A DNA stretch of 64,000 bases from Vicinamibacteria bacterium. GTDB taxonomy: Bacteria; Acidobacteriota; Vicinamibacteria; Marinacidobacterales; Marinacidobacteraceae. The stretch spans positions 1,728,001-1,792,000 of the forward strand of contig OY729431.1 of NCBI GenBank assembly GCA_963422395.1, given 5' to 3'. The first letter of the stretch is position 1, and the number at the start of each line of letters is the position of its first letter. The position numbers were made by a program, and so were the translations under genes. Shown piece after piece: positions 47,551 through 63,128 of this stretch. The notes under the pieces were generated by a model. The model searched no databases. It had not been told where the DNA came from and was given only the letters and a program-made list of their open reading frames with translations.

Positions 47551-47605
47551 GGATCGGCGCGGAGCCGCTTAGGATAGGCGTGCCGGCCATGTTTGCCGGT
47601 CTCCC

Positions 47606-48571
47606 ATGGCGCCCTTTCCCGAGTTCCCTGCTCCGTCCCCGCGGGTTACGGACAGAACCAAGGCCGTCGGCGTGTTGTCGGTGACCGGCTCCGACCGGAC
47701 CCGGTTCCTCACCCGGATCCTGTCGGGAGACCTCCCGCGCGCACCCGGCTCGGCCCGGACCGCGCTCCTCGACCCAAGGGGCCGGGTGATCGCCGCCGCG
47801 GTTGCGACGCTCACCCGCGAGGCGGTCTTTCTCGAGTGCGAGCGCACCCGGGAAGCCGCGCTCCTCGCCGCACTCGAGCGTTACCGAATCGCCGACGCCG
47901 TGGAGATCTCCCCCATGAACCGGGGAGAAATCCGGCTGTGGCGCCGCGACGGTTCGGACCCGAGAGGATCCGATCCGGGGGAAACCGCCCCGGGAGCGGT
48001 CCTCGACCTGCCCGGGGGCTATCTGCGCCGCGATTTCCGCCCCTGGCCGGCGTGGACCATCTTCCAGGCCGAAGATCTGCCGCTGCCCTCCGCTCTATCG
48101 GCCTCCGAAGAGGGAGCGGCCGCGGCGGCCCCTGAGGAACAGGAGTACCTGCGCATCCTCGCGGGGGAACCGCGTTGGGGCGCCGAGCTCGACGAGACTT
48201 CGCTTCCGCTGGGGGCAGGGCTCGCCGCTCATGTGCGCCTCGGCAAGGGCTGCTACATCGGCCAGGAATATGTCGCCCGCCAAGCCCACCGGGGCCGCGT
48301 CCCTCGGCTGCTCCGCCGCCTCGAATTCGCGGAGGAGACCCTGCCCGACCCAGGAGCGAAGGTCGCTTCCGAGGGGCGCGCCGTCGGCCGGATCACGAGC
48401 ACGGCACCCCCGCCCGCAGGTTGGCCCCCGGGAACGAAGCCGCTGGCACTCGCCGTCCTCGCCGCCGAAGTGGAGCCCGGCGCCCTCGTCGAGGCAGTCG
48501 TCGAGAATGCTGTCGCGCATGGCGGACGGCCGGCGGCGGCGGCGCGAGTCCGGGAGCTGCCGACGATCTGA
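47606..48571 (+). CDS. ygfZ: Folate-binding YgfZ/GcvT-family protein
   Basis: VTGSDRTRFL, KGCYIGQE signature, GRITS. Confidence 0.88.
   Translation: MAPFPEFPAPSPRVTDRTKAVGVLSVTGSDRTRFLTRILSGDLPRAPGSARTALLDPRGRVIAAAVATLTREAVFLECERTREAALLAALERYRIADAVEISPMNRGEIRLWRRDGSDPRGSDPGETAPGAVLDLPGGYLRRDFRPWPAWTIFQAEDLPLPSALSASEEGAAAAAPEEQEYLRILAGEPRWGAELDETSLPLGAGLAAHVRLGKGCYIGQEYVARQAHRGRVPRLLRRLEFAEETLPDPGAKVASEGRAVGRITSTAPPPAGWPPGTKPLALAVLAAEVEPGALVEAVVENAVAHGGRPAAAARVRELPTI
48256..48405 (+). repeat. Direct repeat copy 1 (150 bp, inside ygfZ)
   Basis: Matches 59974-60124 with 10 substitutions and 1 indel by manual alignment. Confidence 0.95.
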
Positions 48572-48723
48572 CTCCAGAGCACCCGGCGGCTTCCGCCGCA
48601 GCGTCCGGGCCGGCGCGGAAAGCAGCACGGCTGTCATCGGCAAGGCCGGTCTTCGCTTCCTCTGCCCCGCGCCGCGAACCCCATCGGTTGGCGCCATGAC
48701 AGAATTCGTCTAATCCATGGTGC

Positions 48724-50010
48724 ATGATGACGGCCGTGCTCCCCGCCACCCCTCTCGCCGCCCTCCCAATCGCTCCGATTTCCGCCCCGATCGCGGTAGC
48801 GGTACTCGTCGGCTTCCTGATCGGTCTCCTGATCGGCGCAGCCCTCTACTTCGCCGGCCTGCGCCGGGGCGAGCATCTCGGCCGAACCGAGACCCGCGCG
48901 GACCTCGACTCGATCGCCCGCGCCGCCGCCGACCAGAGCAACCAGACCGCCCGCGAGGCCTACGAGCAAGCCACCGGCCGCGCCTTGGAAACGCTCCAGG
49001 CCGCCGCCCGCTCGGCTCGGGAGATCGAGCACACCCGGCTCGAAAGCGCTACCGCACCGCTCCACGAATCGCTGCGGAATGTGACCCGGCTCGCCAGCGA
49101 ACTGGAGCAGAAGCGCGCCCGCGACCACGGCACCCTCACCGAGGTGGCGAAGCGGCTCGCCAACCAGGTCGAGACCGTGGTCGGCAGCGCCCGCTCCCTC
49201 CGGGAGGCCCTCCGCGGAGACCGGCAGGCGCGCGGCCGCTGGGGTGAGATCCAGCTCCAGACTCTCGTCGAATCCGCCGGCCTCCAAGAGCACTGCGACT
49301 TCGCGGCCCAAATCGGAAAGAACGGGGTGCGCCCCGACCTCGTGCTGCGGCTCCCCGGCGGCGCGAGCCTCGCGGTGGACTCCAAGGTCCCGATGGACGA
49401 CTACCTCGACGCGACCGAGGAGGCGGCAGACCCCTCCGGGCGCCGGACCGAGCTGCTCCGGAGCCATGCGGGCCGCGTCCGCCAGCACGCGAAGGCGCTC
49501 TCCGCCCGCGAGTACCCGGCAGCGCTCGGCGGCGGGCCTCCTTTCACCGTGATGTTCCTCCCGATCGAGTCCCTGCTCGCAGAAGCGATCCGCCGCGACC
49601 CGGACCTGCTCCAGTTCGCTGCCGACCGCCGGATCGTGCTCGCCACTCCGCATACCCTCCTCGGCCTGTTGTGGAGCATCGCCGCCATGTGGCGCAACGA
49701 GATCAGCGCGCAGAACGCCGAGGCGATGCGCCGGGAAGGACTGGAACTCGAGAAGCGGCTCGGACTCTTCCTCAGCCGCTTCGCCGATGTCGGCGCTCAG
49801 CTGCGCAAGACGACCAGCGCTTACAACACCGCCGTCGGCTCCGCCGAAACCCGGCTCACTCCGCATCTCCGCAAGTTGCGCGAGCTGGGCGGAAGCCCCG
49901 AGGAGACCCCGAACGACGACCGGCTCCCCGATCCGGTAGAGATCGTTCCCCGCCTCCCCCGCGGCGACGACGGCACCGACCTCCTTCCCCAACGAGCCCT
50001 CCTCTCATGA
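48724..50010 (+). CDS. rmuC: DNA recombination protein RmuC
   Basis: N-terminal TM and coiled coil, RGRWGEIQL, RPDLVLRLP, VDSKVP, VMFLPIE, LATPHTL. Confidence 0.93.
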   Translation: MMTAVLPATPLAALPIAPISAPIAVAVLVGFLIGLLIGAALYFAGLRRGEHLGRTETRADLDSIARAAADQSNQTAREAYEQATGRALETLQAAARSAREIEHTRLESATAPLHESLRNVTRLASELEQKRARDHGTLTEVAKRLANQVETVVGSARSLREALRGDRQARGRWGEIQLQTLVESAGLQEHCDFAAQIGKNGVRPDLVLRLPGGASLAVDSKVPMDDYLDATEEAADPSGRRTELLRSHAGRVRQHAKALSAREYPAALGGGPPFTVMFLPIESLLAEAIRRDPDLLQFAADRRIVLATPHTLLGLLWSIAAMWRNEISAQNAEAMRREGLELEKRLGLFLSRFADVGAQLRKTTSAYNTAVGSAETRLTPHLRKLRELGGSPEETPNDDRLPDPVEIVPRLPRGDDGTDLLPQRALLS

Positions 50011-50087
50011 GGCCGACCTTTCCCCCTTCCCTTCTCCCGAAACGCCGCGACGGTCGGCCCCGGTACCCAGATCGTGATTCGAAACCG

Positions 50088-50876
50088 ATGAGCTCCTTCC
50101 CCGAGACCGATTGGCGAGGACTCCTCGAAGTTTTCCTCCACGACCCGATGGACAAGGCACTGGACATCCGGGGGCATGAACGGCGGGCTGCGCGATATCT
50201 GTCGAAGGCGCTCGGGGAAGAAGTGAGCCGAACGCAGATCGAGTCCGCCGCCCGGCTGGCCGATCCCCTGGCAGCAGTCGCCGATCGGCTGCCGATGCCC
50301 ACCGCAGGGCCGAATGGAGAGCGAGCCGTCGCCCCCCGAGACGGGACGCTGACCGTGAACCATCCGATCAGCAGCAAGCCGGCGGCGATGCAGTGCGAGC
50401 CGCTGGACGAGCTCCGAGTAACGCAGGTCATCACCGAGATCGTGAAAGGACTCGAAACGCCGCGAGAGCGCTTCTTCGCACTCTGGCGCCTCTTGCCGGA
50501 GCGTCTCGAAGCGAAGTTCGGCCCCTGGATGTCCCGGCTGCCCGCAGACACACGTATTCCCGACCATTCCCTGATCCATCACGCCGACATCACCGCCGGA
50601 CTCTGGACGAGCCGGCAGGGCGGGCCCGGCGCCTACCTGTCGTTCGCCCTCGGGCCGGTGCAGCCGTTCATCGAGGCGGCGCGCAGCGTGCGCGACCTCT
50701 GGTCGGGCAGCGCCATCCTCTCGTGGCTCGCTTTCGCCGCGATGCGTCCGGTCGCCACAAGCTCGGCAAGGGAGAGATCGACCGGGAAGGCAGATGATGG
50801 GATCAAGCCATCCACAACAAGATTGTCTCCTTCATCCGCGGCGTGGAAGCCAGCCTCGGCTCGCGTTTACATTTAA
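50088..50876 (+). pseudogene. cas10: Truncated type III-B Cas10/Cmr2 (N-terminal ~220 aa only)
   Basis: FLHDPMDK, LPADTRIPDHSLIHH, LSFALGPVQPFIEAARSVRDLWSGSAILSWL; similarity stops at ~50753; no GGDD palm. Confidence 0.85.
50794..50845 (+). pseudogene. Micro-remnant of a type I HsdM N-terminus
   Basis: ggaagg RBS-like, ATG, one extra G, then DQAIHNKIVSFIRG, resembling the HNKIVSFIW N-terminus of many HsdM proteins. Confidence 0.5.
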
Positions 50877-50928
50877 CACCGGACAGTCGGACGCTTTCAG
50901 CAGACGCCAAAAGGAGTGAGTCCCGACG

Positions 50929-53900
50929 ATGGCGATGATCACACCCGAACGCGATCTTGAAGAGTCCCTTGTCAAGAAGCTACGGGACCTCAAGTACGAA
51001 TATCGCCCCGACATCCGCGATCGAGCAACACTTGAAGCAAACTTCAGGAAAAAGTTCGAAGCCCTGAATCGTGTCACACTTACCGATGGCGAGTTCCAGA
51101 GACTCCTCGATGAGATCGTCACACCCGATGTGTACGAAGCCGCACGCTCTCTCCGGAACCGGGAAGCGTTCGTCCGCGACGACGGCACGCCGCTCAACTA
51201 CACCCTCGTCAACATCAAAGACTGGTGCAAGAACAGCTTCGAGGTCGTCAATCAGCTCCGCATCAATACGGACAACAGCCATCACCGCTACGACGTCATA
51301 CTCCTGATCAACGGCGTCCCCGTCGTTCAGATCGAGCTAAAGACGCTTGGGATCAGCCCGCGGCGGGCGATGGAGCAGATCGTCGACTACAAGAACGACC
51401 CCGGTAACGGATACTCCAAGACGCTGCTCTGCTTCGTCCAACTCTTCATCGTCAGCAATCGCACTGACACGTGGTACTTCGCAAATAACAACACGCGGCA
51501 TTTCGCCTTCGACGCCGACGAGCGGTTCCTTCCCGTCTACCAGTTCGCGGCCGAGAACAACACCAAGATCACCCACCTCGACGAATTCTCCGATCGGTTC
51601 CTCGCCAAATGCACGCTCGGCCAGATGATCAGCAAGTACATGGTCCTTATCGCGAGTGAGCAGAAGCTGCTGATGATGCGCGCGTACCAGATCTACGCAG
51701 TCAAGGCCATCGTCGACTGCATCGATCAGAACTGCGGCAACGGCTATATCTGGCACACGACCGGGTCGGGCAAGACGCTTACCTCCTTCAAGGCCTCGAC
51801 GCTCCTCAAGTCCAACGAGAGCATCCACAAGTGCCTGTTCGTCGTCGATCGCAAGGACCTCGACCGCCAGACCCGCGAGGAGTTCAACCGGTTCCAGGAG
51901 AACTGCGTCGAGGAAAACACCAACACCGCGGCGCTCGTTCGCCGGCTCCTGTCCGACGACTACGCGGACAAGGTTATCGTCACGACCATCCAGAAGCTCG
52001 GGCTCGCCCTCGACGAGGACAGCAAGCACAACCGGCAGAACATCGCTCGGGGGCGCTCAACGTTCAAGCAGCGGCTCGAGCCGCTCCGGGATAAGCGGAT
52101 GGTTTTCATCTTCGACGAGTGCCACCGCTCGCAATTCGGCGAGAACCACCGGGCCATCAAGGAGTTCTTCCCGAACTCCCAGCTCTTCGGCTTCACCGGC
52201 ACCCCGATCTTCGAGGACAACGCGACCGCCAGGAAGATCGAGGGAGACGTCACCACCCTTCGAACCACCAAAGACCTCTTCCAGAAGAAACTCCACGCAT
52301 ACACCATCACCCACGCGATCGAGGATCGGAACGTCCTCCGCTTTCACGTCGACTACTACAAGCCAAAGGACGCCCCCGCCCTCAAGCCCGGGGAGCCCCT
52401 GGCCAAGCAGGCGGTCGCCCAGGCCATCCTCGACAAGCACGATGCCGCGACCGGTGACCGACGTTTCAACGCGCTGCTCGCTACGGCCTCCATCAACGAC
52501 GCCATCGAGTATTACGAGGATTTCCAGAAGCTCCAGGCCGAGCGCCAGGCTGCCGACCCCGAGTTCGTGCCTCTCAAGATCGCCGCCGTCTTCTCGCCGC
52601 CCGCGGAGGGCAACAAGGATGTCCAGCAGATCCAGGAGGACCTTCCCCAGGAAAAGGAGGACAACCGGCGCGATCCCGAGGGCAAGAAGACCGCGCTCAA
52701 GGCCATCATCGCCGACTACAACCAGCGGTATGGCACCAACCACGACATCAACAACTTCGACCTCTACTACCAGGACATCCAGCAGCTGATCAAGGATCAG
52801 CAGTTTCCCAATCGCGACCTGCCCCGCAAGGGCCAGGAAAAGATCGACATCACCATAGTCGTCGACATGCTCCTCACCGGCTTCGACGCCAAGTTCCTCA
52901 ATACGCTCTACGTCGACAAGAACCTCAGGCGCCATAACCTGATTCAGGCTTTCTCCCGCACCAACCGCGTCCTCAACGCCACCAAGCCTTACGGCCACAT
53001 CCTCGACTTCCGCAATCAGCAGAACAGCGTCGATGCCGCTATCGCTCTCTTCTCCGGTGCGCAGGCTGACCAAGCTCGCGAGATCTGGCTGGTCGACCCG
53101 GCATCCACAGTACTTGAGAAATACGAACAGGCGGTTGCGGCTATTGAGAAATTCATGACGCAAAACAACGTGGTCGCCGAGCCCCGGGGCGCTTACTCCA
53201 TCAAGGGAGATACTGCGCGGATTGAATTTGTGAACCGCTTCAAGGAGGTCCAGCGCCTCAGGACCGAGCTCGACCAGTACACCGACCTCACCGACGAGCA
53301 GCGGGAGCAGATCGAACAGACCCTCCCCAAGGACGACCTCCGCGCCTTCCGCGGTGCCTACCTCGAAACCGCCCAGCGCATCAAGGAGCAGCAGGGCGCA
53401 CCCGGAAGGGACGGCGAGCCGACCAAGCCCGAGGTCGACCAGCTCGACTTCGAATTCGTCCTCTTCGCCTCCGCCATCATCGATTACGACTACATCATGA
53501 AGCTGATCGCCAAGTACTCGGGTCAGGACCCGAAGAGACTGAAGATCAGCCGCGAGCAGCTCATCGGGCTGATCCGGTCCGACGCCAAGTTCCTCAACGA
53601 ACTGGAGGAGATCACCGAGTACGTCCGCTCACTCAAGGAGGGCGAGGGCCTCGACGAGGCTGCGGTCCGCGACGGCTACGAGCAGTTCAAGGCCGAGAAG
53701 CAGGCCAAAGAGATCGCCGACCTCGCTCAGGCCCATGGCTTGACGACCGAGTCCCTCTCGGCCTTCGTCGACACCATCCTCAAGCGCATGATCTTCGACG
53801 GCGAGCAGCTCACCGACCTGATGGAGCCGCTCGACCTGGGCTGGCGCGAACGCCGCGAGCGGGAACTTGCACTGATGGACCACCTGGTTCCGGTGCTGAA

Positions 53901-53964
53901 ACGGCGGGCGGAGGGCCGGCACATTTCGGGCCTCAACGCCTACGAGCATGGAGAGGCGCGATGA
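50929..53964 (+). CDS. hsdR: Type I restriction endonuclease subunit R
   Basis: RYDV..VQIELK nuclease motif, WHTTGSGKT, FDECHRSQ, GFTGTP, DMLLTGFD, QAFSRTNR. Confidence 0.96.
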   Translation: MAMITPERDLEESLVKKLRDLKYEYRPDIRDRATLEANFRKKFEALNRVTLTDGEFQRLLDEIVTPDVYEAARSLRNREAFVRDDGTPLNYTLVNIKDWCKNSFEVVNQLRINTDNSHHRYDVILLINGVPVVQIELKTLGISPRRAMEQIVDYKNDPGNGYSKTLLCFVQLFIVSNRTDTWYFANNNTRHFAFDADERFLPVYQFAAENNTKITHLDEFSDRFLAKCTLGQMISKYMVLIASEQKLLMMRAYQIYAVKAIVDCIDQNCGNGYIWHTTGSGKTLTSFKASTLLKSNESIHKCLFVVDRKDLDRQTREEFNRFQENCVEENTNTAALVRRLLSDDYADKVIVTTIQKLGLALDEDSKHNRQNIARGRSTFKQRLEPLRDKRMVFIFDECHRSQFGENHRAIKEFFPNSQLFGFTGTPIFEDNATARKIEGDVTTLRTTKDLFQKKLHAYTITHAIEDRNVLRFHVDYYKPKDAPALKPGEPLAKQAVAQAILDKHDAATGDRRFNALLATASINDAIEYYEDFQKLQAERQAADPEFVPLKIAAVFSPPAEGNKDVQQIQEDLPQEKEDNRRDPEGKKTALKAIIADYNQRYGTNHDINNFDLYYQDIQQLIKDQQFPNRDLPRKGQEKIDITIVVDMLLTGFDAKFLNTLYVDKNLRRHNLIQAFSRTNRVLNATKPYGHILDFRNQQNSVDAAIALFSGAQADQAREIWLVDPASTVLEKYEQAVAAIEKFMTQNNVVAEPRGAYSIKGDTARIEFVNRFKEVQRLRTELDQYTDLTDEQREQIEQTLPKDDLRAFRGAYLETAQRIKEQQGAPGRDGEPTKPEVDQLDFEFVLFASAIIDYDYIMKLIAKYSGQDPKRLKISREQLIGLIRSDAKFLNELEEITEYVRSLKEGEGLDEAAVRDGYEQFKAEKQAKEIADLAQAHGLTTESLSAFVDTILKRMIFDGEQLTDLMEPLDLGWRERRERELALMDHLVPVLKRRAEGRHISGLNAYEHGEAR

Positions 53965-55217
53965 CGGCCCACAAGCCATTGCACCTTGTGCCGCAGCTGC
54001 GGTTTCCGGAGTTTCGAGACGACCCAAGCTGGTCGGCTCCGCAATTCGCTGATCTGTATGACTTCAAGCGCACCAACACACTGTCGAGAGACAAACTCAA
54101 CTACGAAACCGGAACGATCAGGAATATTCACTACGGCGATATTCACACCAAGTTCAAGCCTCTTTTCCGAGTGGATGATGAGTATGTGCCATATGTCAAT
54201 GCAGATGACTCATCTAACGAATTTGATGATGACGCATTTTGTGAAATAGGTGACATAGTATTTGCCGACGCCTCTGAAGACCTCGACGACGTAGGGAAAG
54301 CAATCGAAGTTGTTTCGCTAGACGGAGAACGGGTCGTCGCTGGTACGCACACCATTCTAGGAACAAGGCGAGAGAGCGTTCCTGTCGTTGGCTTTGGCGG
54401 GCAACTATTCCAGTCCGTTGCTGTTCGTTCTGGGATAAAGAAAGAAGCTCAGGGCACGAAGGTCTACGGCATATCAGCGAAGCGAATTTCGGCCGTTCCG
54501 ATTCCAATCCCGCCGACAGTGGTCGAGCAGAAGAAGATCGCCGACTGCCTCGGCTCGCTGGACGACCTGATTGCGGCGGAGGGCCAAAAGCTCGACGCCC
54601 TGCGACAGCACAAACAAGGACTGATGCAACTTCTCTTCCCCCAGCCCGGCGCGACTGTGCCCCGGCTGCGATTTCCGGAGTTCCGAGATACGCCAGTGTG
54701 GGCGCAAACCCCTCTCGGCGACGCGTTCAAAACTATCACAAATGGGCAAGAAAACGCACAAGACCACCAAGAGGATGGTGCTTACCCCCTGTTCGACCGT
54801 TCCGAGTTAGTTAAGCGATCGCCGACGTTCCTATTCGATGCCGAGGCTGTGATCCTGCCGGGTGAGGGGATGAGATTCCAACCCCGATACTTCAACGGTA
54901 AATTCAATTTGCATCAGAGAGCTTACGCGCTCATGGAACCAACGCTAGACCCGCGCTTCGCTTTCCAAGCATTGGACAGGTTTAAGGGAGCACTTGCAGA
55001 CAGCGCTGTTAAGTCGACTGTGCTGTCGCTGAGGATGCCGATCATTGAAAAGTTCGCTATCCCTTGCCCGACGATTGACGCAGAACAGCAGAAGATCGCC
55101 GACTGCCTCGGTTCGCTGGACGACCTGATCGCGGCGGAGGGCCGGAAGCTCGACGCCCTGCGGCAGCACAAGCAGGGGCTGATGCAGAAGCTCTTTCCCT
55201 CGCTGGACGGGCAGTGA
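53961..55217 (+). CDS. hsdS: Type I restriction-modification specificity subunit
   Basis: Two TRDs, each preceded by P.LRFPEFRD and followed by EQ.KIADCLGSLDDLIAAEG.KLDALRQHKQGLMQ; TRDs are visibly AT-richer. Confidence 0.95.
   Translation: MTAHKPLHLVPQLRFPEFRDDPSWSAPQFADLYDFKRTNTLSRDKLNYETGTIRNIHYGDIHTKFKPLFRVDDEYVPYVNADDSSNEFDDDAFCEIGDIVFADASEDLDDVGKAIEVVSLDGERVVAGTHTILGTRRESVPVVGFGGQLFQSVAVRSGIKKEAQGTKVYGISAKRISAVPIPIPPTVVEQKKIADCLGSLDDLIAAEGQKLDALRQHKQGLMQLLFPQPGATVPRLRFPEFRDTPVWAQTPLGDAFKTITNGQENAQDHQEDGAYPLFDRSELVKRSPTFLFDAEAVILPGEGMRFQPRYFNGKFNLHQRAYALMEPTLDPRFAFQALDRFKGALADSAVKSTVLSLRMPIIEKFAIPCPTIDAEQQKIADCLGSLDDLIAAEGRKLDALRQHKQGLMQKLFPSLDGQ
54528..55199 (+). repeat. hsdS internal conserved-region direct repeats (114 bp at 54528-54641 and 55086-55199)
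   Basis: aagatcgccgactgcctcgg..tcgctggacgacctgat.gcggcggagggcc..aagctcgacgccctgcg.cagcacaa occurs twice. Confidence 0.9.
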
Positions 55218-55220
55218 GTC

Positions 55221-56426
55221 ATGAGCGACGCAACCACGTTCAAGGACCTCGACGCCCTCGCCGCACACCTGCGGCAAGAGCTGGAGAACAAGAAGTTCAT
55301 CCTGCTCTACGCCTATAACGGCACGGGCAAGACCCGGCTGTCCACCGCCTTCAAGAACCTCGGCAAAGGCGTGAACACCGATGACGAGACGGAACAGCGC
55401 GACACGCTCTACTTCAACGCCTTCACCGAAGACCTGTTCTCGTGGGACAACGATTTGGAGAATGACAGTGAGCGGAAGCTGACGCTCAACACGGATTCGA
55501 GCTTCTTCGCCGGTCTCGAGTCGATGGAGATGGACAACCGAATCCGTACCCTGCTCGACCGCTACGCCGACTTCGAGTTCCGAATTGACACCACGACCTG
55601 GGAGGTGGCCTTCGCCCGAGAGTTCAGAGTGAAGAAGGATGGCGCCGCCGGCGACGAGGCCGACAGCGCGGACGCGGGACGCGGTGAGAGCGGAGACGAG
55701 TACGAAACCCGCCGCGAGGAGGCCATCAAGATCTCCCGTGGCGAGGAGAATATCTTCATCTGGTGCTTCTTCCTCACCATTGTCGAGCTTGCGCTCGATG
55801 ACGATGGAGCCGGTCCCTACAACTGGGTCAAGCACATCTATATTGACGATCCGATCTCATCGCTCGACGAGCACAACGCCATCGCCGTGGCAAATCATCT
55901 GGCGATGCTGCTCAAGAAGCCGAAGAGTGGGCTCAAGACGGTGATTTCGACGCATCACACGCTGTTCTTCAACGTGCTTTGCAACGAGCTGAATAGGGCG
56001 AATAAGTACTTTCTCAGCCGCGACGGGTCGCCGGAGGGGCTTCTCCTGCGCAAGACCGGGGATACGCCATTTTTCCACCATGTGGCCGCGCTCGCTGAGC
56101 TCTACAAGGTAGAACGCGATGGCAGGCTGTACACCCATCACTTCAACCTGCTCCGCGCAATCCTCGAGAAGACCGCAAGTTTTCATGGCTACGAGAGCTT
56201 CTCCGTATGCATCAAGCGCGACGCTGACGATGAAGACGGCATCCTTCACACACGGTTGATCAACATCCTCAGCCACGGTAAATATTCATTGTTCGAGCCG
56301 CAGGAGATGCTGGAGGAGAACAAACGCTACTTTCGGAAGATCCTCCGCGAGTTCATCAGCCGGTACCCCTTCAACCCCGCCTTGTTTCCTAGTGAGCCGG
56401 CAGAGTCAGTGAATGACCCGACATGA
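55221..56426 (+). CDS. prrC: PrrC-family anticodon nuclease (ABC ATPase plus HEPN)
   Basis: Walker A YAYNGTGKT, PrrC box YFNAFTEDLFSWDND, signature ISRGEE, Walker B YIDDPISSLD, STHH, LLRAILEK and the Rx6H motif RLINILSH; located inside an hsd operon. Confidence 0.88.
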   Translation: MSDATTFKDLDALAAHLRQELENKKFILLYAYNGTGKTRLSTAFKNLGKGVNTDDETEQRDTLYFNAFTEDLFSWDNDLENDSERKLTLNTDSSFFAGLESMEMDNRIRTLLDRYADFEFRIDTTTWEVAFAREFRVKKDGAAGDEADSADAGRGESGDEYETRREEAIKISRGEENIFIWCFFLTIVELALDDDGAGPYNWVKHIYIDDPISSLDEHNAIAVANHLAMLLKKPKSGLKTVISTHHTLFFNVLCNELNRANKYFLSRDGSPEGLLLRKTGDTPFFHHVAALAELYKVERDGRLYTHHFNLLRAILEKTASFHGYESFSVCIKRDADDEDGILHTRLINILSHGKYSLFEPQEMLEENKRYFRKILREFISRYPFNPALFPSEPAESVNDPT

Positions 56427-58051
56427 CTGAACAGAACCAGAAACAGCTTGGCAAGACGCTCTGGGCCATCGCCGATCAACTCCGCGGGGCGATGAACGCG
56501 GACGACTTTCGCAACTATATGCTCGCGTTCCTGTTTCTCCGCTACCTCTCGGACAACTACGAACAGGCTGCAAAGAAGGAACTCGGGCGCGACTATCCTG
56601 ACCCGAACGCTATCGGCAACAGCGGGCGGTCCTCCTTGTCTGTCTGGTACGACCAGAACCCCGACGATGTGTCGGTGTTCGAGAAACAGATGCGGCTCAA
56701 AGCCCATTACGTTATCCGCCCCGAGCACCTCTGGGTCAGCGTCGCCCACATGGCCCACAAACAGGATGACGAGCTGCTCCACACGCTCCAGGCAGGCTTC
56801 AAGTACATCGAGAACGAATCTTTCCAGAGCACGTTCTCCGGGCTTTTCTCGGAAATCAATCTCAGTTCCGACAAACTCGGCAAGAGCTATCCCGACCAGA
56901 ACGCGAAGCTCTGCACGATCATCACCAGAATAGCCAAGGACCTCGCGGAATGCTCCACGGACGGCGACACGCTAGGCGACGCCTACGAGTATCTGATCGG
57001 CCAGTTCGCCGCGGGATCGGGGAAGAAGGCAGGTGAGTTCTACACGCCGCAGCAGATCTCGGACATCCTCTCCGAGATCGTCGCGCTCGACAGCCAGGAG
57101 CCGAAGACCGGCAAGCGGAAACCCCTCGCCAGCGTGATGGACTTCGCCTGCGGATCGGGCTCGCTGTTGCTCAATGTGCGCAAGCGCATGGGACCGCACG
57201 GCATCGGCAGGATCTACGGGCAGGAGAAGAACATCACCACCTATAACCTCGCGCGGATGAACATGCTGCTGCACGGGGTGAAGGACTTGGAGTTCGAGAT
57301 CTATCACGGCGACACGCTGACCAACGACTGGGACATGCTCCGCGAGACGAACCCGGCAAAGAAGCCCTATTTCGACGCCGTGGTCGCCAACCCACCCTTC
57401 AGCTACCGCTGGGGCCCGAACGAGGCGTTGGGCGAGGACGTGCGCTTCAAGAACTACGGGCTGGCCCCGAAGTCGGCGGCGGACTTCGCGTTCCTGTTGC
57501 ACGGGTTTCACTACCTCAAGGACGACGGTGTGATGGCGATCATCCTGCCGCACGGCGTGCTGTTCCGTGGCGGCGCGGAGGCGAAGATCCGCCGCAAGCT
57601 CCTTGTCGACGGGCACATCGACACCGTCGTGGGCCTGCCGGCAAACCTGTTCTACTCGACCGGCATCCCGGTCTGCATCCTCGTCCTGAAGAAGTGCAAG
57701 AAACCCGATGATGTCCTGTTCATCAACGCGTCCGAGCATTTCGAGAAGGGCAAGCGGCAAAACTACCTGTCCGACGAGCATATCGAGAAGATCATCGACA
57801 CCTACCAGCAGCGTCCGGAGAGCATCGAGCGGTATGCCAGACGCGTGGAGATGGACGAGATTGAGGCCAACGACTGCAACCTGAATATCTCCCGCTATGT
57901 CAGCACGGCCGAGCCGGAAGTCGAGATCGATCTGGCGGCCGCGCATGAAGGGTTGGTCGAGATCGAGAGGCAGATTCAGGAGTCAACGACGAAGCACAAC
58001 GCGTTTCTGAAGGAACTTGGACTATCGCCATTGCCAGCGCCCGACAAGTAA
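56423..58051 (+). CDS. hsdM: Type I DNA methyltransferase subunit M (m6A)
   Basis: LWAIADQLRG, GEFYTP, DFACGSG, NPPF, PHGVLFRG, NLNISRYV. Confidence 0.96.
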   Translation: MTEQNQKQLGKTLWAIADQLRGAMNADDFRNYMLAFLFLRYLSDNYEQAAKKELGRDYPDPNAIGNSGRSSLSVWYDQNPDDVSVFEKQMRLKAHYVIRPEHLWVSVAHMAHKQDDELLHTLQAGFKYIENESFQSTFSGLFSEINLSSDKLGKSYPDQNAKLCTIITRIAKDLAECSTDGDTLGDAYEYLIGQFAAGSGKKAGEFYTPQQISDILSEIVALDSQEPKTGKRKPLASVMDFACGSGSLLLNVRKRMGPHGIGRIYGQEKNITTYNLARMNMLLHGVKDLEFEIYHGDTLTNDWDMLRETNPAKKPYFDAVVANPPFSYRWGPNEALGEDVRFKNYGLAPKSAADFAFLLHGFHYLKDDGVMAIILPHGVLFRGGAEAKIRRKLLVDGHIDTVVGLPANLFYSTGIPVCILVLKKCKKPDDVLFINASEHFEKGKRQNYLSDEHIEKIIDTYQQRPESIERYARRVEMDEIEANDCNLNISRYVSTAEPEVEIDLAAAHEGLVEIERQIQESTTKHNAFLKELGLSPLPAPDK

Positions 58052-58187
58052 TCGAAGCTATCCCTCCCACAACCCTTGCGACGCCGGAGCATTGCGACGA
58101 GCCGGAAATCAAGGCCCTCCAAACACAATACCGATGTCGCGACGGGCCGCGCGCTCGATCCGACAGCCCCCAAAGTCCGACAGACTG

Positions 58188-59911
58188 CTAGCAGCCTGCG
58201 CCGCAGAAACGGGGCGGGCGATATGGTGGTAGCGACGAGCGGACGGTCGGGCTGCTCGGGAGTTGGGACCGGGGGGCGACACGGTTGCGTGGCATATAAC
58301 TCATTTTATATCATACACTTACGGAAAAGGGGCGAGGGCGTCTCGGATCCGGGGAGGGATGGTTCCGATGGGCACGCGTTTTCGTCAGTATCAGCCGGGG
58401 CAGCTGCTCTTGTTGCCGCCGGATCTGCGGCAGTGGGTTCCGGAGGGGCATTTGGCGCATCACATCAGCGATGTGGTGGACGAGCTGGACTTGTCTGCGT
58501 TCTACGCGCCGTATGCGGGGGACGGGCGGCGGAACGCGCCGTATGACCCGCGGATGATGGTGAAGGTGCTGATCTACGCTTATGCGACGGGGGTGTTTTC
58601 GTCGCGTGGGATTGCGCGGAAGCTGGAAGAGGACGTGGCGTTTCGGATGCTGGCGGCGAGGAACTTCCCGAGGCACCGGACGATCTGCGAGTTTCGTCGT
58701 CGGCATCTGGGGGATTTCCGGGAGTTGTTCGTCGAGGTGGTGCGGGTGGCGCGGCAGTGCGGGCTGGTGCGTTTCGGCAGGCTATCGCTGGACGGGGTGA
58801 AGGTTCGGGCGAACGCGAGCAAGCGCAAGGCGATGAGTTATGGGCGGATGCTGGCCGAGGAGCGGCGGCTTGCGGCGGAGATCGCGGGATATTTGGAGCA
58901 GGCGGGAGAGACCGACGAGCGGGAGGACGCGGCCCACGGGGCGGAGCGGCGCGGCGACGAGTTGCCGGCTGAGCTGCGGCGCCGGGAGGATCGGTTGGCG
59001 GCGATCCGGGCGGCGAAGGTGCAGCTGGAAGCGGAGCAGCGGGCGCGGGACGAGGCGCGGGGGCGGGTCCCCGGACAGACCCACAGTCCGGGGAACGGTC
59101 GGCGCTACCAGCGCGCGCATGGGGAGCCGAAGGCGGAAGCGCAGGGGAACTTCACCGACCCCGAGAGCCGGATCATGAAGACGAGCGCCGAGGGGTTCCA
59201 GCAGTGCTACAACGCGCAGATGGCGGTGGACGGAGAGAACCAGCTGGTGGTGTCGAACCAGCTGACGGCGAATGCGGGCGACCAGGGGCAGCTGCCGGCG
59301 CTGCTGGACCGGGTGCGAGAAGAGTTGGGCGCGGTGCCGGCGGTGGTGTTGGCTGATGCCGGATACTGCAACGAGCGGGACCTGGCACTGCTGGAAACCC
59401 GCGGGATAGACGGGTATGTCGCCGTCGGACGGGAAGGGCGGAAGCGGGCGGCGGGCACTCCCGCGAAGCATCACCCGGCGACCCGCCGGATGAGAGAAAA
59501 ACTGGCGGCTCACGCCGGGCGAAAGATCTACGCGGCGCGGAAGTGGCTGTCCGAGGCGCCCCACGGGTGGATCAAGGAGGTGATGGGGTTCCGGCGGTTC
59601 AGCTTCCGGGGGCTGCGCAAGGCGCAAGGAGAGTGGGACCTGGTCTGCCTGGCGTTGAACCTGCGACGGCTCCCGGGGTTGCTGGCAGCGTAAACGCCTG
59701 CCCCGCCCTGCCCCTGACTCCACGAACCCGCCAATCTGGCCCCTCAACCCGCGAATCTGGCCCCGGTGCGCCTGCTCGAACTCCCCTCCCGCCCGAAAAC
59801 TGCGCGATCCCGCCCCCACCAGACTCCGATCACCAATACCCAACCCACGAATCCTCCACCGAACCCCGAAAATCCCATCCGCCCCAATCTTCCTGCGGCG
59901 CAGACTCCTAG
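58188..59911 (+). mobile_element. IS1182-family insertion sequence
   Basis: Ends ctagcagcctgcgccgcagaa (from 58188) and ttcctgcggcgcagactcctag (to 59911) are inverted repeats; CTAG at both boundaries. Confidence 0.88.
58368..59693 (+). CDS. IS1182-family DDE transposase
   Basis: YDPRMMVKVLIYAYATGVFSSRGI, LDGVKVRANAS, TDPESRIM, YNAQ, ADAGY, EAPHGWIK..GFRRF. Confidence 0.93.
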   Translation: MGTRFRQYQPGQLLLLPPDLRQWVPEGHLAHHISDVVDELDLSAFYAPYAGDGRRNAPYDPRMMVKVLIYAYATGVFSSRGIARKLEEDVAFRMLAARNFPRHRTICEFRRRHLGDFRELFVEVVRVARQCGLVRFGRLSLDGVKVRANASKRKAMSYGRMLAEERRLAAEIAGYLEQAGETDEREDAAHGAERRGDELPAELRRREDRLAAIRAAKVQLEAEQRARDEARGRVPGQTHSPGNGRRYQRAHGEPKAEAQGNFTDPESRIMKTSAEGFQQCYNAQMAVDGENQLVVSNQLTANAGDQGQLPALLDRVREELGAVPAVVLADAGYCNERDLALLETRGIDGYVAVGREGRKRAAGTPAKHHPATRRMREKLAAHAGRKIYAARKWLSEAPHGWIKEVMGFRRFSFRGLRKAQGEWDLVCLALNLRRLPGLLAA

Positions 59912-59920
59912 CCCCCCGAA

Positions 59921-59957
59921 CCCGCACCGACTGCCCCGACACCGAGGGGATGGAAAC
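59921..59957 (+). CRISPR. Solitary 37-nt CRISPR-repeat-like unit (type III-like)
   Basis: cccgcaccgactgccccgacaccgaggggatggaaac has a CCCC/GGGG stem and the 3' handle ATGGAAAC; only one full copy; cas10 fragment and cas6 nearby. Confidence 0.6.
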
Positions 59958-59973
59958 CTCCTTGGTTCTGTCC

Positions 59974-60272
59974 CATCGGCCAGGGAATATGTCACCCGCC
60001 ATGCCCACCGGGGCCGCGTCCCTCGGCTGCTCCGCCGCCTCGAACTCGTGGAGGAGACCCTGCCCGACCCGGGAGCGGAGATCACTTCCGGGGCGCGCGC
60101 CGTCGGCCGGATCACGAGCACGGCGGGGCGGCCGCTGGGGTGGAGCGGCGCGTCGGCGGTGGCGCTGGCCGCCCTGAAAGGCAACGCGCTAGCATCGGCA
60201 CCTTCACTGGAAGAGCAGGGCTGCCGAGGTTCGCGAACATGCAAGGCAAGATGGACACCCGGGCTGCGGTGA
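59974..60272 (+). pseudogene. Duplicated 3' portion of ygfZ (repeat copy 2 at 59974-60124) with an alternative C-terminal tail
   Basis: EYVTRHAHRGRVPRLLRRLELVEETLPDPG..GRITST versus ygfZ EYVARQAHRGRVPRLLRRLEFAEETLPDPG..GRITST. Confidence 0.85.
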
Positions 60273-60517
60273 ACACTGCGAAGGATTGGCTCCTCGAGAT
60301 CTTCGCCGACGAAGAGGTCAGTTCGCCCCGGCTCGAAGAAATCCAACTCGACCACGGCGCCGACGCTTGGGAGGTAACGATCAGCTTCAAGCGCGATGGA
60401 AAGTCGCTCGCCGATGTCTTCGGCGGCCGCACGTTCAAGGTCGTCCGGATCGACGATCGGACCGGCGAAGTCGTCGGTATGACCCATCGCAGCCTGCCAG
60501 AAGTTTCGCCCCGTTGA
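60251..60517 (+). CDS. Small protein (88 aa), putative partner/antitoxin of the downstream PIN protein
   Basis: MDTRAAVNTAKDWL..RLEEIQLD..WEVTISF..FKVVRID resembles small proteins found upstream of PIN genes; its stop overlaps a TTG. Confidence 0.6.
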   Translation: MDTRAAVNTAKDWLLEIFADEEVSSPRLEEIQLDHGADAWEVTISFKRDGKSLADVFGGRTFKVVRIDDRTGEVVGMTHRSLPEVSPR

Positions 60518-60935
60518 GAGTCGTCACCGAAACTTCCTCGACGCGAATCTCATCGTTCTCCTCATCGTCGGAACAGTAAGCAGGGAGCGGATCAGCCAGG
60601 ACAAGCGGACCCGGCGTTTCACTCCGGAGGACTATGACCGCCTTCTGGACCTGCTCGAGCGGAAACGAGTCTTCGTCACCCCGAACACGCTCACGGAAGC
60701 TTCGAACCTGCTCAAGCCCCATCACGAGTTCGAGGAAGTGCTGCGAACCCTGATCGAAGAGAGCACCGAGGAAGCCGTCAGCAGCGCTGCCGCCGCCCGA
60801 TCACACGCGTTCCCCCGGCTCGGACTGACCGACGCCGCATTACTGGAGGTGATCTCGGTGGAGCGTCCATTGCTGACTGTTGATTTGGATCTCTACGCCT
60901 CGCCCGATAACGGCACTTCGTCCACAGACTATTAG
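60514..60935 (+). pseudogene. PIN-domain (VapC-like) nuclease, apparently frameshifted near the start and 3'-truncated
   Basis: Frame from 60531 reads NFLDANLIVLLIVG..VTPNTLTEASNL..LGLTDAAL..LLTVD; no in-frame canonical start after the stop at 60480; the TTG at 60514 is out of frame. Confidence 0.7.
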
Positions 60936-60978
60936 CCCCGACACCGAACTGCGCCGCGGCGCGTGTCGGGGTGGGGAG

Positions 60979-61866
60979 TTACGCCCTGGAGATCTGCATT
61001 CGACCCAGGCCGAACACCGTCCCTTTACCGAGATGCGTCCAGCAGCCGGCGGCGAGTAGCGGCCAGAGGCCGGGGGCGCCCGCCGGAAGTTCGACCGTCC
61101 CGGCGACACCTCGCATCTCGACCTCGCAGTGCTGGCTGCCCGACCAGCGAACGAAGTCCCGGCGCTCACCGCGCCAGGACGCAACGGGAAGTTGCTCTGC
61201 CGCAACGAGGACTTCCTGGACGAGGTCCGACGCTAGCGGCGTCTGCGCACTTTCGGCAAGAAGGAGAATGCGGCGCGTGAGCACCACACAGATGTCCTTC
61301 ACGGTGGGGCGCTCGATCAGGCGCCCGCGCCGCAACAGGCGAAGCGGCGTCTGGAACTGGATGCGCAGTCCACCCCTTCCCGCGATTCGGCGCCGCTTCG
61401 TTTCCGCCGCTGTTCGCAGGGACCATCGTTGGGACCGCACCAGCGGCTGACCATCGCAATCGAGCCATCGCACCGCACAGACGCTGAAGGCCGCCCGATC
61501 GGGGCCGAGACCGAGACCCGCCGCGGTATCCCAAGCCCGCACCAACGCGTCTTCGTGTTCGATTGCAGCTCCGAAGAGAATCCAGTCGACCGCGGGAGCG
61601 AAGGCGGGGTCGGGAGGAGCTGGGCGCATCAGATAGAGCGGCAGGCGAGTCGTTCCGGCACTGGATCGGACCCGCTGACCATCGAAAACCCGAGCGTAGG
61701 CCCGGCAATCGAAACCTCTCAGCGCACGCCCCCAGACTCCCCGCAACAGGGATGTAGTTGCACGCACCGCAGCGGTGTCGAGCAGCAAACGGCGCGGCAC
61801 GACGACGATGTCGTCGAGGATGCGCAACAGGCGCTCTTCGAGTTCCCGCCCATCCCCGGATGTCAT
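60979..61866 (-). CDS. cas6: CRISPR pre-crRNA endoribonuclease Cas6 (RAMP)
   Basis: LLRGVWGRALR, FQTPLRL, RWSGSQ..MRGVAG, C-terminal G-loop HLGKGTVFGLG. Confidence 0.85.
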   Translation of the reverse strand: MTSGDGRELEERLLRILDDIVVVPRRLLLDTAAVRATTSLLRGVWGRALRGFDCRAYARVFDGQRVRSSAGTTRLPLYLMRPAPPDPAFAPAVDWILFGAAIEHEDALVRAWDTAAGLGLGPDRAAFSVCAVRWLDCDGQPLVRSQRWSLRTAAETKRRRIAGRGGLRIQFQTPLRLLRRGRLIERPTVKDICVVLTRRILLLAESAQTPLASDLVQEVLVAAEQLPVASWRGERRDFVRWSGSQHCEVEMRGVAGTVELPAGAPGLWPLLAAGCWTHLGKGTVFGLGRMQISRA

Positions 61867-63128
61867 CTCCGGTGCATCGAGCCGCCCCCCGTTCCACCCG
61901 TTCCGAATGCTGGGTCGGGGCCGCGGATCACATCGAGGATCGCCCCCGGGTGGGAGACTCGGACCGACTCGCCGCCTTCCAGCCGGACGGGCGTCCGGAA
62001 GACGAACTTCTCGACCCAGTCCCGATCGAAACGGGTGATGCGCAGGAGAGTGGTCGCGCTCCCGTCGGCGGCCACCGCTTCCACGGTGAAGCCGCCTCCA
62101 CCGAGGTCGAGTTCCTCGGGTGGCAGGACCGCCAGCAGCGAGGCGGGGCCGAACCGAGTCGCACCCGCCTCGAACGCAACCGGCTCGACTGCGGATGCTC
62201 CGGCGGCAACCGTTTCCACAGCGGTCGGTTCGCCGCCCCCCCCCTGAGCCGCAGCATCAGCCGCGCGGCGTTTCCCGGCGGGGAAGACGACGATCTGCGG
62301 GGCATCCTCGAAGGCCAGTCCCTCGGTGTCGAAACCCTTGCGGTACTCGAGGTGAAGGAAAAGCCCGGCTTCCGGCGGAAGCGGATCGAAGACGCCCTCC
62401 GGCCGGAGGCGGGCTCCCTGCCCCACCACCCAGGTAAAGACCGGCGCCGCGTTTCGACAGCCGTCGCCGAGGAAGAGCACCGCCCGGCGGAGAATGGGAA
62501 GCGCTTCCCCGGGGACCAGCGCGAACCCGCCGGCAGCGGCGGGAACATCCTCGCCCCGGACCAGCGGCGCGCAGACTGCCGCCTCGGACTCCAGCTCGCC
62601 GATGCGAACCGGCTCCGCGAGCTGGAGCCGGGGGCCGGAAAGCGGCAGCTCCCCGTCGCGCTTCTCCCCGACTGCATCCGGTGTCTTTTCGGGTGGGGCG
62701 CCCTCGGGAGCGAGACCGATGGCCCAATCCACCAGCCGGTCGGTTTCACGCTCGTCGAGCGTGCGGGCGTGGGCGAACTCTCCCGCCCCGTCGTCGGGAA
62801 GCCAGGGCGGCATCCGCCGCTCGAGCACCTGGCGGGCGATGGAGTTGGCCCAGGGCAGAGCGTCCCCGTAGCGCATCAGATTCACCGGTGCCGGGCCGGT
62901 CCCCGCATGACACGAGGAGCAATGTCGGTCTAGGAGCGGGCGGATGTCGCGCCAGTAGGTATAACGGGACAATTCGGGCTCGTGGGCCGCAGCCGGAAAG
63001 GGGCTGCAAGAGGAGAGGAAAGCACCGATCCCTCCCGCGGCGAGCGCAGCCAGCGGCCCGTACCGCGCGAATGAGGAAAGCCGCGGCATCCGTCTCTCCT
63101 GGATATTCTGGCTCTTCCGATCGCTCAC
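61863..63128 (-). CDS. Secreted c-type cytochrome fused to a degenerate copper type II monooxygenase-like domain
   Basis: Hydrophobic leader, DIRPLLDRHCSSCH (CxxCH), RRMPPW, FDRDW..FRTPVRL. Confidence 0.7.
   Translation of the reverse strand: MSDRKSQNIQERRMPRLSSFARYGPLAALAAGGIGAFLSSCSPFPAAAHEPELSRYTYWRDIRPLLDRHCSSCHAGTGPAPVNLMRYGDALPWANSIARQVLERRMPPWLPDDGAGEFAHARTLDERETDRLVDWAIGLAPEGAPPEKTPDAVGEKRDGELPLSGPRLQLAEPVRIGELESEAAVCAPLVRGEDVPAAAGGFALVPGEALPILRRAVLFLGDGCRNAAPVFTWVVGQGARLRPEGVFDPLPPEAGLFLHLEYRKGFDTEGLAFEDAPQIVVFPAGKRRAADAAAQGGGGEPTAVETVAAGASAVEPVAFEAGATRFGPASLLAVLPPEELDLGGGGFTVEAVAADGSATTLLRITRFDRDWVEKFVFRTPVRLEGGESVRVSHPGAILDVIRGPDPAFGTGGTGGGSMHRR

Follow-up and report, generated by a model that had tools for sequence, protein, structure and literature searches.

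Orphan and remnant elements of clustered regularly interspaced short palindromic repeats (CRISPR) systems, such as solo arrays and isolated cas genes, are commonly reported. The genes of the Escherichia coli prr locus (EcoprrI, a type Ic restriction-modification (R-M) system) stand in the order hsdM-hsdS-prrC-hsdR. The PrrC family is described as combining ABC-ATPase motifs and an Arg-x3-Glu...His triad with linkage to type I R-M (PMC2610378, PMC3458546), and the triad of the E. coli protein is given as Arg320-Glu324-His356 (PMC2610378). Rapid turnover of defence systems has been reported for the E. coli pan-genome (PMC10121019) and for community defensomes (PMC10924106). Here we describe a case of this process in a 64,000-nucleotide stretch, referred to below as the window, which comprises bases 1728001-1792000 of the closed, single-contig genome (2.91 Mb; 68% guanine plus cytosine, GC) of a Vicinamibacteria bacterium. 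Between the core gene rmuC and a second core gene at 61863-63128, the window very probably holds a wrecked type III-B CRISPR locus, the interior of which was replaced by a foreign cassette of type I R-M and prrC genes.

Like other CRISPR remnants, the window has an isolated cas6 and two repeats without an effector; unlike in the usual remnants, relatives allow each lost gene to be named, and it is known which DNA took their place. Defence islands and hotspots, like the window, have a system replaced at a variable site with insertion sequences (IS) and toxin-antitoxin-like debris around it, whereas the window has no mobile-element carrier or integrase and its junctions are resolved to 25-50 bp. 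Unlike hotspots, the site shows no variation in defence genes across the 14 relatives examined. The process is known defence-system turnover, and the case is a tidy new example of it, clean but ordinary.

Intact type III-B loci occur in two relatives (G numbers denote genomes, with G000 holding the window and the others being relatives, and L numbers denote fetched loci). The locus of G005 (L015) consists of cas10, cmr3, cmr4, cmr5, a 706-residue RAMP fusion, a Csm6-type HEPN gene, cas1, cas2, an array of about 40 repeats, an IS and a convergent cas6, and that of G004 (L016) has the same gene order, mirrored. The flanks of the locus differ among G004, G005 and the window. For the window, a gene map was built from Pfam, NCBIfam and PADLOC profile searches, with Rfam for the repeat, and the following parts of such a locus were found:

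50088..50753, plus strand: cas10/cmr2 5' stump, codons 1-222, with the HD region and the start of Cmr2_N (Pfam, NCBIfam, PADLOC)
59921..59957, plus strand: CRISPR repeat A, 37 nt, 29 of 37 bases as in the G005 repeat, stem kept
~60921..60978, plus strand: CRISPR repeat B, degenerate terminal repeat adjoining the cas6 stop codon (alignment with the G004 and G005 terminal repeats)
60979..61866, minus strand: cas6, 295 amino acids (aa), full length, orphan (Pfam PF10040, PADLOC Cas6)

The window shares with both intact loci a 37-nt repeat with the same stem and an AT(T/G)GAAAC tail, as well as a convergent cas6 adjoined by a degenerate terminal repeat, all in the same order and on the same strands. 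Unlike G004 and G005, it lacks cas10 past codon 222, cmr3, cmr4, cmr5, the RAMP fusion, csm6, cas1 and cas2, and retains two repeats only. With the Cas10 N-terminus, the repeat, the cas6 with its terminal repeat and the order all present, this is, judged from its sequence, a remnant of a type III-B locus of the G004/G005 kind. The initial annotation, made from the letters of the window alone, had proposed that the Cmr effector genes and the array were removed while cas6 was retained, and G004 and G005 now show what the missing interior contained.

The same annotation had placed the break of a Cas10/Cmr2 N-terminus at about 50753, which the profile matches bear out. Pfam Cmr2_N matches the stump with profile positions 1-44 of 111 (E 8.5e-12), the sole such match in the genome, and NCBIfam TIGR02577 and PADLOC Cas10 match it as well. 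The stump is colinear with residues 1-223 of the 848-aa Cas10 of G005 (64% identity) and keeps the HD motif H18-D19, and at the DNA level its likeness to Cas10 stops sharply at base 50753. No palm2 domain was matched in the stump, whereas both G005 and G004 have Cas10-Cmr2_palm2; the window copy is therefore not a full-length Cas10/Cmr2 with palm (cyclase-like) domains. Its frame continues for 40 codons into foreign DNA up to a stop at 50876, leaving 262 codons open in total. Expression, if it occurs, would yield an HD domain on its own, extended by 40 foreign residues.

At the other end, a pattern built from the G004 and G005 repeats has a single match in the window and none in 100 shuffles. 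This match is repeat A, the one CRISPR-like repeat that had been noticed before, and Rfam CRISPR-DR10 falls on exactly the same bases, 59921-59957, at a sub-threshold score (25.2 versus 39 bits, E 0.049). Repeat B had been missed; its 13-nt core at 60935-60947 is identical to repeat A, and it carries a 19-20-nt insertion. In the two relatives, the distance between terminal repeat and cas6 stop codon is 21 nt (G004) and 0-4 nt (G005). A spacer-bearing array is absent from the window, which has these two repeats only, with 0.96 kb of non-spacer DNA between them. The gene next to repeat B, earlier described as an intact-looking cas6, is indeed full length: PADLOC Cas6 (PDLC01496) matches with profile positions 24-279 of 281 (E 3.2e-53), and the product is colinear with Cas6 of G005 (45% identity) and G004 (48%). 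Its C-terminal glycine-rich loop, G-K-x-x-x-x-G-L-G, is invariant between the three proteins, and a Cas6 endoribonuclease is thus predicted. It is the sole Cas6 match in the whole genome.

No cmr gene, cas1 or cas2 lies within the window, as previously stated. This extends to the whole genome for RAMP (PF03787), Cmr3 and Cmr5 (PF09700, PF09701), for which there was no match while the controls matched. With every Cmr subunit missing from the genome, type III-B interference can no longer operate. The sole Cas1 belongs to a complete type I-C system, the only intact CRISPR system of the genome, at 2.527-2.538 Mb and about 750 kb from the window (G000:C1:2527000-2537800; L001, L002). It comprises cas3, cas5d, csd1, cas7, cas4, cas1, cas2 and about 31 repeats. 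When its 29 spacers were compared with the genome and the fetched loci, only short partial matches (17-23 nt) were obtained, none in the island or the cassette. As a side observation on the intact relatives, a DUF4276 protein and an AAA_15/AAA_21 ATPase, a pair of the defence-island kind, directly follow cas6 in G005 (L015 18230-19981).

The place of the missing interior is occupied by the R-M/PrrC cassette, in line with the initial annotation, which had also described its four genes as intact. All four are matched over their full length, and they overlap or abut in an operon-like manner:

50754..50778, no strand: 25-bp filler between the stump and the cassette (likeness to Cas10 stops at 50753, that to the cassette starts at 50779)
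50779..58136, plus strand: type I R-M and PrrC cassette, 7.36 kb, cut from a larger conserved unit at both ends (DNA identity 79-94% to 13 loci)
50797..50938, plus strand: short cassette-borne leader frame, common to L063, L066 and L071, i.e. 3 of 12 related cassettes
50929..53964, plus strand: hsdR, 1011 aa (Pfam HSDR_N, SWI2_SNF2, T1R_D3-like, EcoR124_C)
53961..55217, plus strand: hsdS, 418 aa, two target-recognition domains (profile searches, PADLOC)
55221..56426, plus strand: prrC anticodon-nuclease homologue, 401 aa (PADLOC PrrC E 3.9e-138)
56423..58051, plus strand: hsdM, 542 aa (Pfam HsdM_N, N6_Mtase E 3.7e-104; PADLOC MTase_I)
58137..58186, no strand: 50-bp filler, possibly with part of an old spacer (related cassettes show no likeness past 58136)

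PADLOC REase_I aligns residues 5-995 of HsdR with profile positions 4-971 of 976. With HsdR, a two-domain HsdS and HsdM complete and adjacent, the predicted products are those of a type I R-M system. The 401-aa PrrC homologue appeared as AAA_13 in the first profile searches; it has a Walker A motif (GTGKT at 34-38), a Walker B motif (IYIDDP at 206-211) followed by SLD, and a C-terminal R312-x3-E316-x35-S351-H352, matched to the triad by motif only. These motifs and its position between hsdS and hsdM of a type I R-M operon identify it, at the level of sequence, as a PrrC. In the E. coli prr locus, as here, prrC is linked to the R-M operon and lies next to hsdS. The two differ in gene order, hsdR-hsdS-prrC-hsdM in the window as opposed to the E. 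coli arrangement, and in the Glu-His spacing, which is 35 residues in the window protein and 31 in E. coli PrrC.

A scan for PrrC with one genome per species found 542 relatives, and 13 of 80 loci were compared at the DNA level. The closest PrrC relatives (76-93% protein identity) come from metagenome-assembled genomes labelled Alphaproteobacteria, Paracoccaceae, Thalassobaculaceae, Acidobacteriota and others. The 13 loci (L061-L072, L130), from metagenome-assembled genomes of other phyla, are 79-94% identical in DNA to the cassette over hsdR and prrC-hsdM and have the same order, which is kept as hsdR-hsdS-prrC-hsdM in the 12 closest loci with a whole cassette. The likeness is lost in the target-recognition parts of hsdS, for example at 54013-54510, and the first recognition domain (54013-54513) is private to the window genome. 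Three loci share the start of cassette likeness at 50779, and two share its end at 58132-58136. The related units extend further, on the left into a Phd/YefM-like or VapC-like gene and on the right by about 40 nt, so the window cassette is a piece cut on both sides. The sequence taken in the initial annotation for the scar of an hsdM-like start near 50753 is real, and it is no local scar: it is the leader frame, borne by the cassette, in which one extra G in the window moves the frame off its ATG, and its resemblance to the HsdM N-terminus is weak. In short-query BLAST against the fetched loci and the genome, the 25-bp filler gave chance-level matches of 16-20 nt (E 0.014) to the unrelated PrrC loci L095 and L074, and the 50-bp filler matched no fetched locus and nothing else in the genome. 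The stretch between the PIN-like pseudogene described below and cas6 likewise had chance-level matches only (16-20 nt and E 0.006-0.014 for this stretch and the left filler).

Four public sequencing runs contain parts of the stretch, and we compared their contigs with 47500-62500; the best of these runs may be the sample of origin and are thus not fully independent. An X2 contig of 2643 nt covers 48296-50938 with no differences. It bridges the junction between cas10 and the cassette, the place where a misassembly would have undermined the earlier proposal. Both flanks have equal depth, about 50-85 in X1, and the cassette reaches 10-30 times the flank depth in all four runs; therefore, many community members carry the cassette. 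The private hsdS domain is found at flank depth in X1, X2 and X5, with a 566-nt contig showing no differences. X1 also has seven or more distinct contigs in which the end of repeat A is followed by 37-40 other letters and then by repeat A again, at a depth of 6-10 and thus about 1/5 to 1/10 of the flank depth. One X1 contig ends at 50752. The array contigs and this contig end are both compatible with a second strain in the sample that has a live array and, perhaps, an intact cas10. A possible X1 joint that skips the island, 50078-60769 at depth 11.9, was set aside as too weak, as it has 24 letters on one side; it could be an island-free variant or a chance join.

Between the cassette and repeat A lies a complete mobile element:

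58187..59912, plus strand: IS1182-family insertion sequence, complete (transposase 58263-59693; CTAG at both ends)

Its DDE transposase matches NCBIfam NF033551 with 370.6 bits against a cut-off of 270, and its 23-nt inverted repeats pair 58187-58209 with 59890-59912 at 87%. The genome holds three full copies, the other two being 96-97% identical to the window copy, as well as fragments. By transposase, inverted repeats and copy number, it is a member of the IS1182 family as far as its sequence tells, as had been recognized before. What had been described separately as an orphan IS end is its own left inverted repeat. Target-site duplications were considered as a sign of IS-mediated deletion and dismissed, as CTAG stands at both ends of all three full copies and is uninformative.

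The flanks are formed by genes of the core genome:

47606..48571, plus strand: ygfZ, CAF17/YgfZ-like folate-binding protein, left-flank core gene (Pfam GCV_T, NCBIfam TIGR03317)
48724..50010, plus strand: rmuC, core gene, left border of the island (Pfam RmuC E 6.6e-79)
61863..63128, minus strand: conserved core gene, right border of the island (weak cytochrome-c-like signal; Pfam Cytochrome_CBB3 E 0.015, below cut-off)

A homologue of the right border gene is present in 28 of 28 family genomes. On the left, the synteny up2-up1-ygfZ is kept in all 14 relatives fetched, and rmuC follows ygfZ within 0.7-5 kb in eight of them. In genus g2, the genes after rmuC correspond to 1.564 Mb and 1.818 Mb of the window genome (blastp on open reading frame (ORF) sets) and the downstream core gene is 43-75 kb away from ygfZ, which makes the right side of rmuC a synteny break. 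An ancestral gene-order reconstruction was abandoned because of this break, as a simple history is not derivable. The idea of a hotspot in which successive defence cassettes replaced each other did not hold up: one replacement is documented, and no cas10 or cas6 match lies within 10 kb of ygfZ in any of the 14 relatives fetched, a weak test as all are from other genera. In G021, a pair of a small gene and a PIN-like gene lies between ygfZ and rmuC together with an IS256-type transposase. The same region (L048 13837-14514) contains 21 tandem 32-bp units without spacers inside a long frame, on the way from the PIN-like gene to rmuC, which are not a CRISPR array.

The pair seen in G021 recurs in the window on a displaced fragment:

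59958..59973, no strand: 16 nt, including a 14-nt reverse complement (59960-59973) of ygfZ 47650-47663
59974..60209, plus strand: ygfZ', displaced ygfZ 3' fragment (59974-60124 93% identical to 48256-48405, with a 1-nt insertion)
60239..60517, plus strand: small ORF, 92 aa, intact (homologue upstream of the PIN-like gene in G021)
60514..60935, plus strand: PIN-like pseudogene (TTG start overlapping the stop of the small ORF)

The small gene and the PIN gene had been noted as a pair. They are not a resident toxin-antitoxin pair but part of a truncated ygfZ'-small-PIN' fragment of about 929 bp (59974 to ~60902) that lies exactly between repeats A and B, and its ygfZ 3' part (59974-60209) had been overlooked. 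The leftovers of 16 and 18 nt around it together make up about one spacer length. Past 60124, ygfZ' matches the YgfZ C-terminus at the protein level. The tail of the resident ygfZ comes closest to that of G006, whose ygfZ is also the most similar among the relatives, and the ygfZ' tail is more like those of genus g2. In G021, ygfZ, the small gene (frameshifted there) and the PIN-like gene (71% identity) follow each other in that order. In the window, the PIN-like gene has a 1-nt deletion after codon 7, compared with the 96%-identical P0004, and its 3' end is replaced after ~60902, so that the last ~20 conserved residues are gone. The 14-mer 59960-59973/47650-47663 occurs at only these two places in the 2.9-Mb genome, and the inverted match could have arisen by templated insertion or have been left by an inversion plus deletion. 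An inversion between the matches as the sole event was rejected, as undoing it gives no whole ygfZ. The array trailer end seems tolerant of insertions, because G005 has its IS in the same last-spacer slot.

The earlier PIN assignment is reduced to a tentative likeness. The gene has no Pfam match even at E <= 1 and none in NCBIfam or PADLOC, and in the window it is frameshifted and cut at its 3' end. Its family has 1149 detectable members and no Pfam domain; among 24 sequences, the acidic residues D10 and E62 are invariant and D107 and D124 are found in at least 90%. The structural model has a predicted local distance difference test (pLDDT) score of 68.5, and the top Foldseek matches are VapC/PIN structures at E 0.014-0.1 and a template modelling (TM) score of about 0.5, with none at E <= 0.001, a moderate fold match. 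The small ORF is nearest to the Atlas cluster 'PepSY domain-containing' (score 0.90; a lead only). The PIN-like family (~150 aa; L048 11596-12042; P0004-P0123) and the ~92-aa ORF, with their stop/start overlap in the window and in G021, form a candidate undescribed toxin-antitoxin-like pair.

Taken together, these observations suggest the following course. The original locus would have been cas10-cmr3-cmr4-cmr5-RAMP fusion-csm6-cas1-cas2-array-cas6 (convergent), and 7.36 kb of foreign hsdR-hsdS-prrC-hsdM DNA would have replaced it from cas10 codon 223 to near the array end. The donor would be a cassette that moves between unrelated bacteria in these communities. Because the junctions cut conserved donor parts and have no integrase, target duplication or repeat, the likeliest route appears to be that a linear fragment was joined in through illegitimate end-joining or microhomology recombination, either in a single step or by insertion and subsequent deletion. 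Then or earlier, the IS1182-family element would have landed at a CTAG just upstream of the second-last repeat, and the 0.93-kb fragment of a sister lineage's ygfZ-small-PIN region would have come into the last spacer. The order of these events is one that we infer. The cas6 gene and the cas10 stump are probably relics no longer under selection that decay has not yet erased; for cas6, we infer this lack of selection. The open frame of cas6 is no evidence of use, as the cas10 stump is stop-free over 222 codons and yet unable to work as Cas10. By analogy with E. coli PrrC, the present defence at the site should be type I restriction backed by PrrC, which should cut the anticodon of a transfer RNA when a phage disables the restriction enzyme, and adaptive immunity would be left to the type I-C system elsewhere in the genome.

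Several points weigh against this reconstruction. The comparison of relatives proposed in the initial annotation gave no cmr locus at this site, as the complete loci of G004 and G005 stand in other contexts, and decay in place is read from order and orientation. The closest Cas10 proteins found, those of G004 and G005, are only 64-65% identical to the N-terminus in the window. The fillers of 25 bp (left) and 50 bp (right) lack an explanation, the junctions between cassette and IS and between IS and repeat are unbridged by contigs of the four runs (uninformative, as the IS is multi-copy), and the functions of PrrC and the R-M enzymes are drawn from homology only. Furthermore, the ygfZ' fragment shows that more than a simple overwrite happened here. 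One alternative is that the mosaic was made elsewhere, with a gutted, cassette-bearing III-B block of 11.8 kb being moved later into its place between rmuC and the downstream core gene. The GC content would agree with this: over the entire interval 50000-61000 it is 0.50-0.66 (0.50-0.64 in the cassette, 0.63-0.66 in the cas10 stump), below the 0.68-0.73 of the flanks. So would the patchy distribution of this type of Cas10, which is found in 7 of 401 phylum-sampled genomes at E <= 1e-20, G000 included, and in 5 of 41 relatives at E <= 0.001, two of them strong; a search of Joint Genome Institute (JGI) metagenome contigs for a closer intact locus returned one locus only, at 30% identity. As its contexts differ in G004 and G005, the III-B locus itself is mobile. 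Yet cas genes never flank the cassette in the 13 related loci, cas6 has a host-like GC content of 0.68, and the live repeat-A arrays of X1 with the contig end at 50752 fit a co-resident strain with an intact locus, so that we consider a transfer of the finished mosaic unlikely.

That two organisms were joined in the assembly through a cassette common to many community members is hardly credible. The high cassette depth in the four runs does imply many organisms with near-identical copies, and the right-hand junctions do lack bridging short-read contigs; however, the X2 contig crosses the left junction without a difference, the private hsdS domain and both flanks agree in depth, and the genome is a single closed contig. 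Both ends of one III-B architecture on the two sides would also not be expected from a random mis-join. A further possibility concerns cas6 and the two repeats, which could be kept because they still work, for example on another transcript or in support of the type I-C system. Sharing of CRISPR RNA (crRNA) between type I and type III-B systems is described in Marinomonas (PMC5576922). Here, cas6 is full length with a conserved glycine-rich loop, and repeat A has the same kind of end as the I-C repeat, a hairpin and then AT(T/G)GAAAC. However, type I-C systems have their own processing subunit, Cas5d, and the cas5d gene is present in the I-C locus of this genome. No effector is left for Cas6 products, the cas10 stump, just as open, is an example of a frame that survives here without function, and the adjoining PIN-like gene is already broken, all of which makes a working cas6 very improbable. 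We also regard as improbable the combined case that the 0.93-kb fragment was inserted by the locus's own adaptation machinery as an oversized trailer-end 'spacer', and not by repair capture, while intact and replaced alleles still coexist in the sampled population.

A wrecked III-B locus overwritten in place, the reading we prefer, would provide a nucleotide-level record of the displacement of one defence system by another without a visible mobile-element carrier. Relatives tell which genes were lost, and the incoming DNA can be traced to a cassette that crosses phyla in the same communities. This could help to explain island turnover, which here would proceed through illegitimate recombination of naked fragments and not through site-specific integration. 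If intact and replaced alleles do coexist, the swap could be studied as a live polymorphism. Annotators should note that debris of this sort can look like an isolated cas6 or like a 262-aa 'Cas10-like HD protein'.

Two minor observations lie outside the island. In contigs of X1, X2 and X5, 68 nt of ygfZ (48051-48120) are replaced by 95 other letters, a strain variation within the same samples. Elsewhere in the genome (G000:C1:516933-523171), about 6 kb consist of repeats with a 102-bp period in at least 50 units, which are probably a repetitive coding region.

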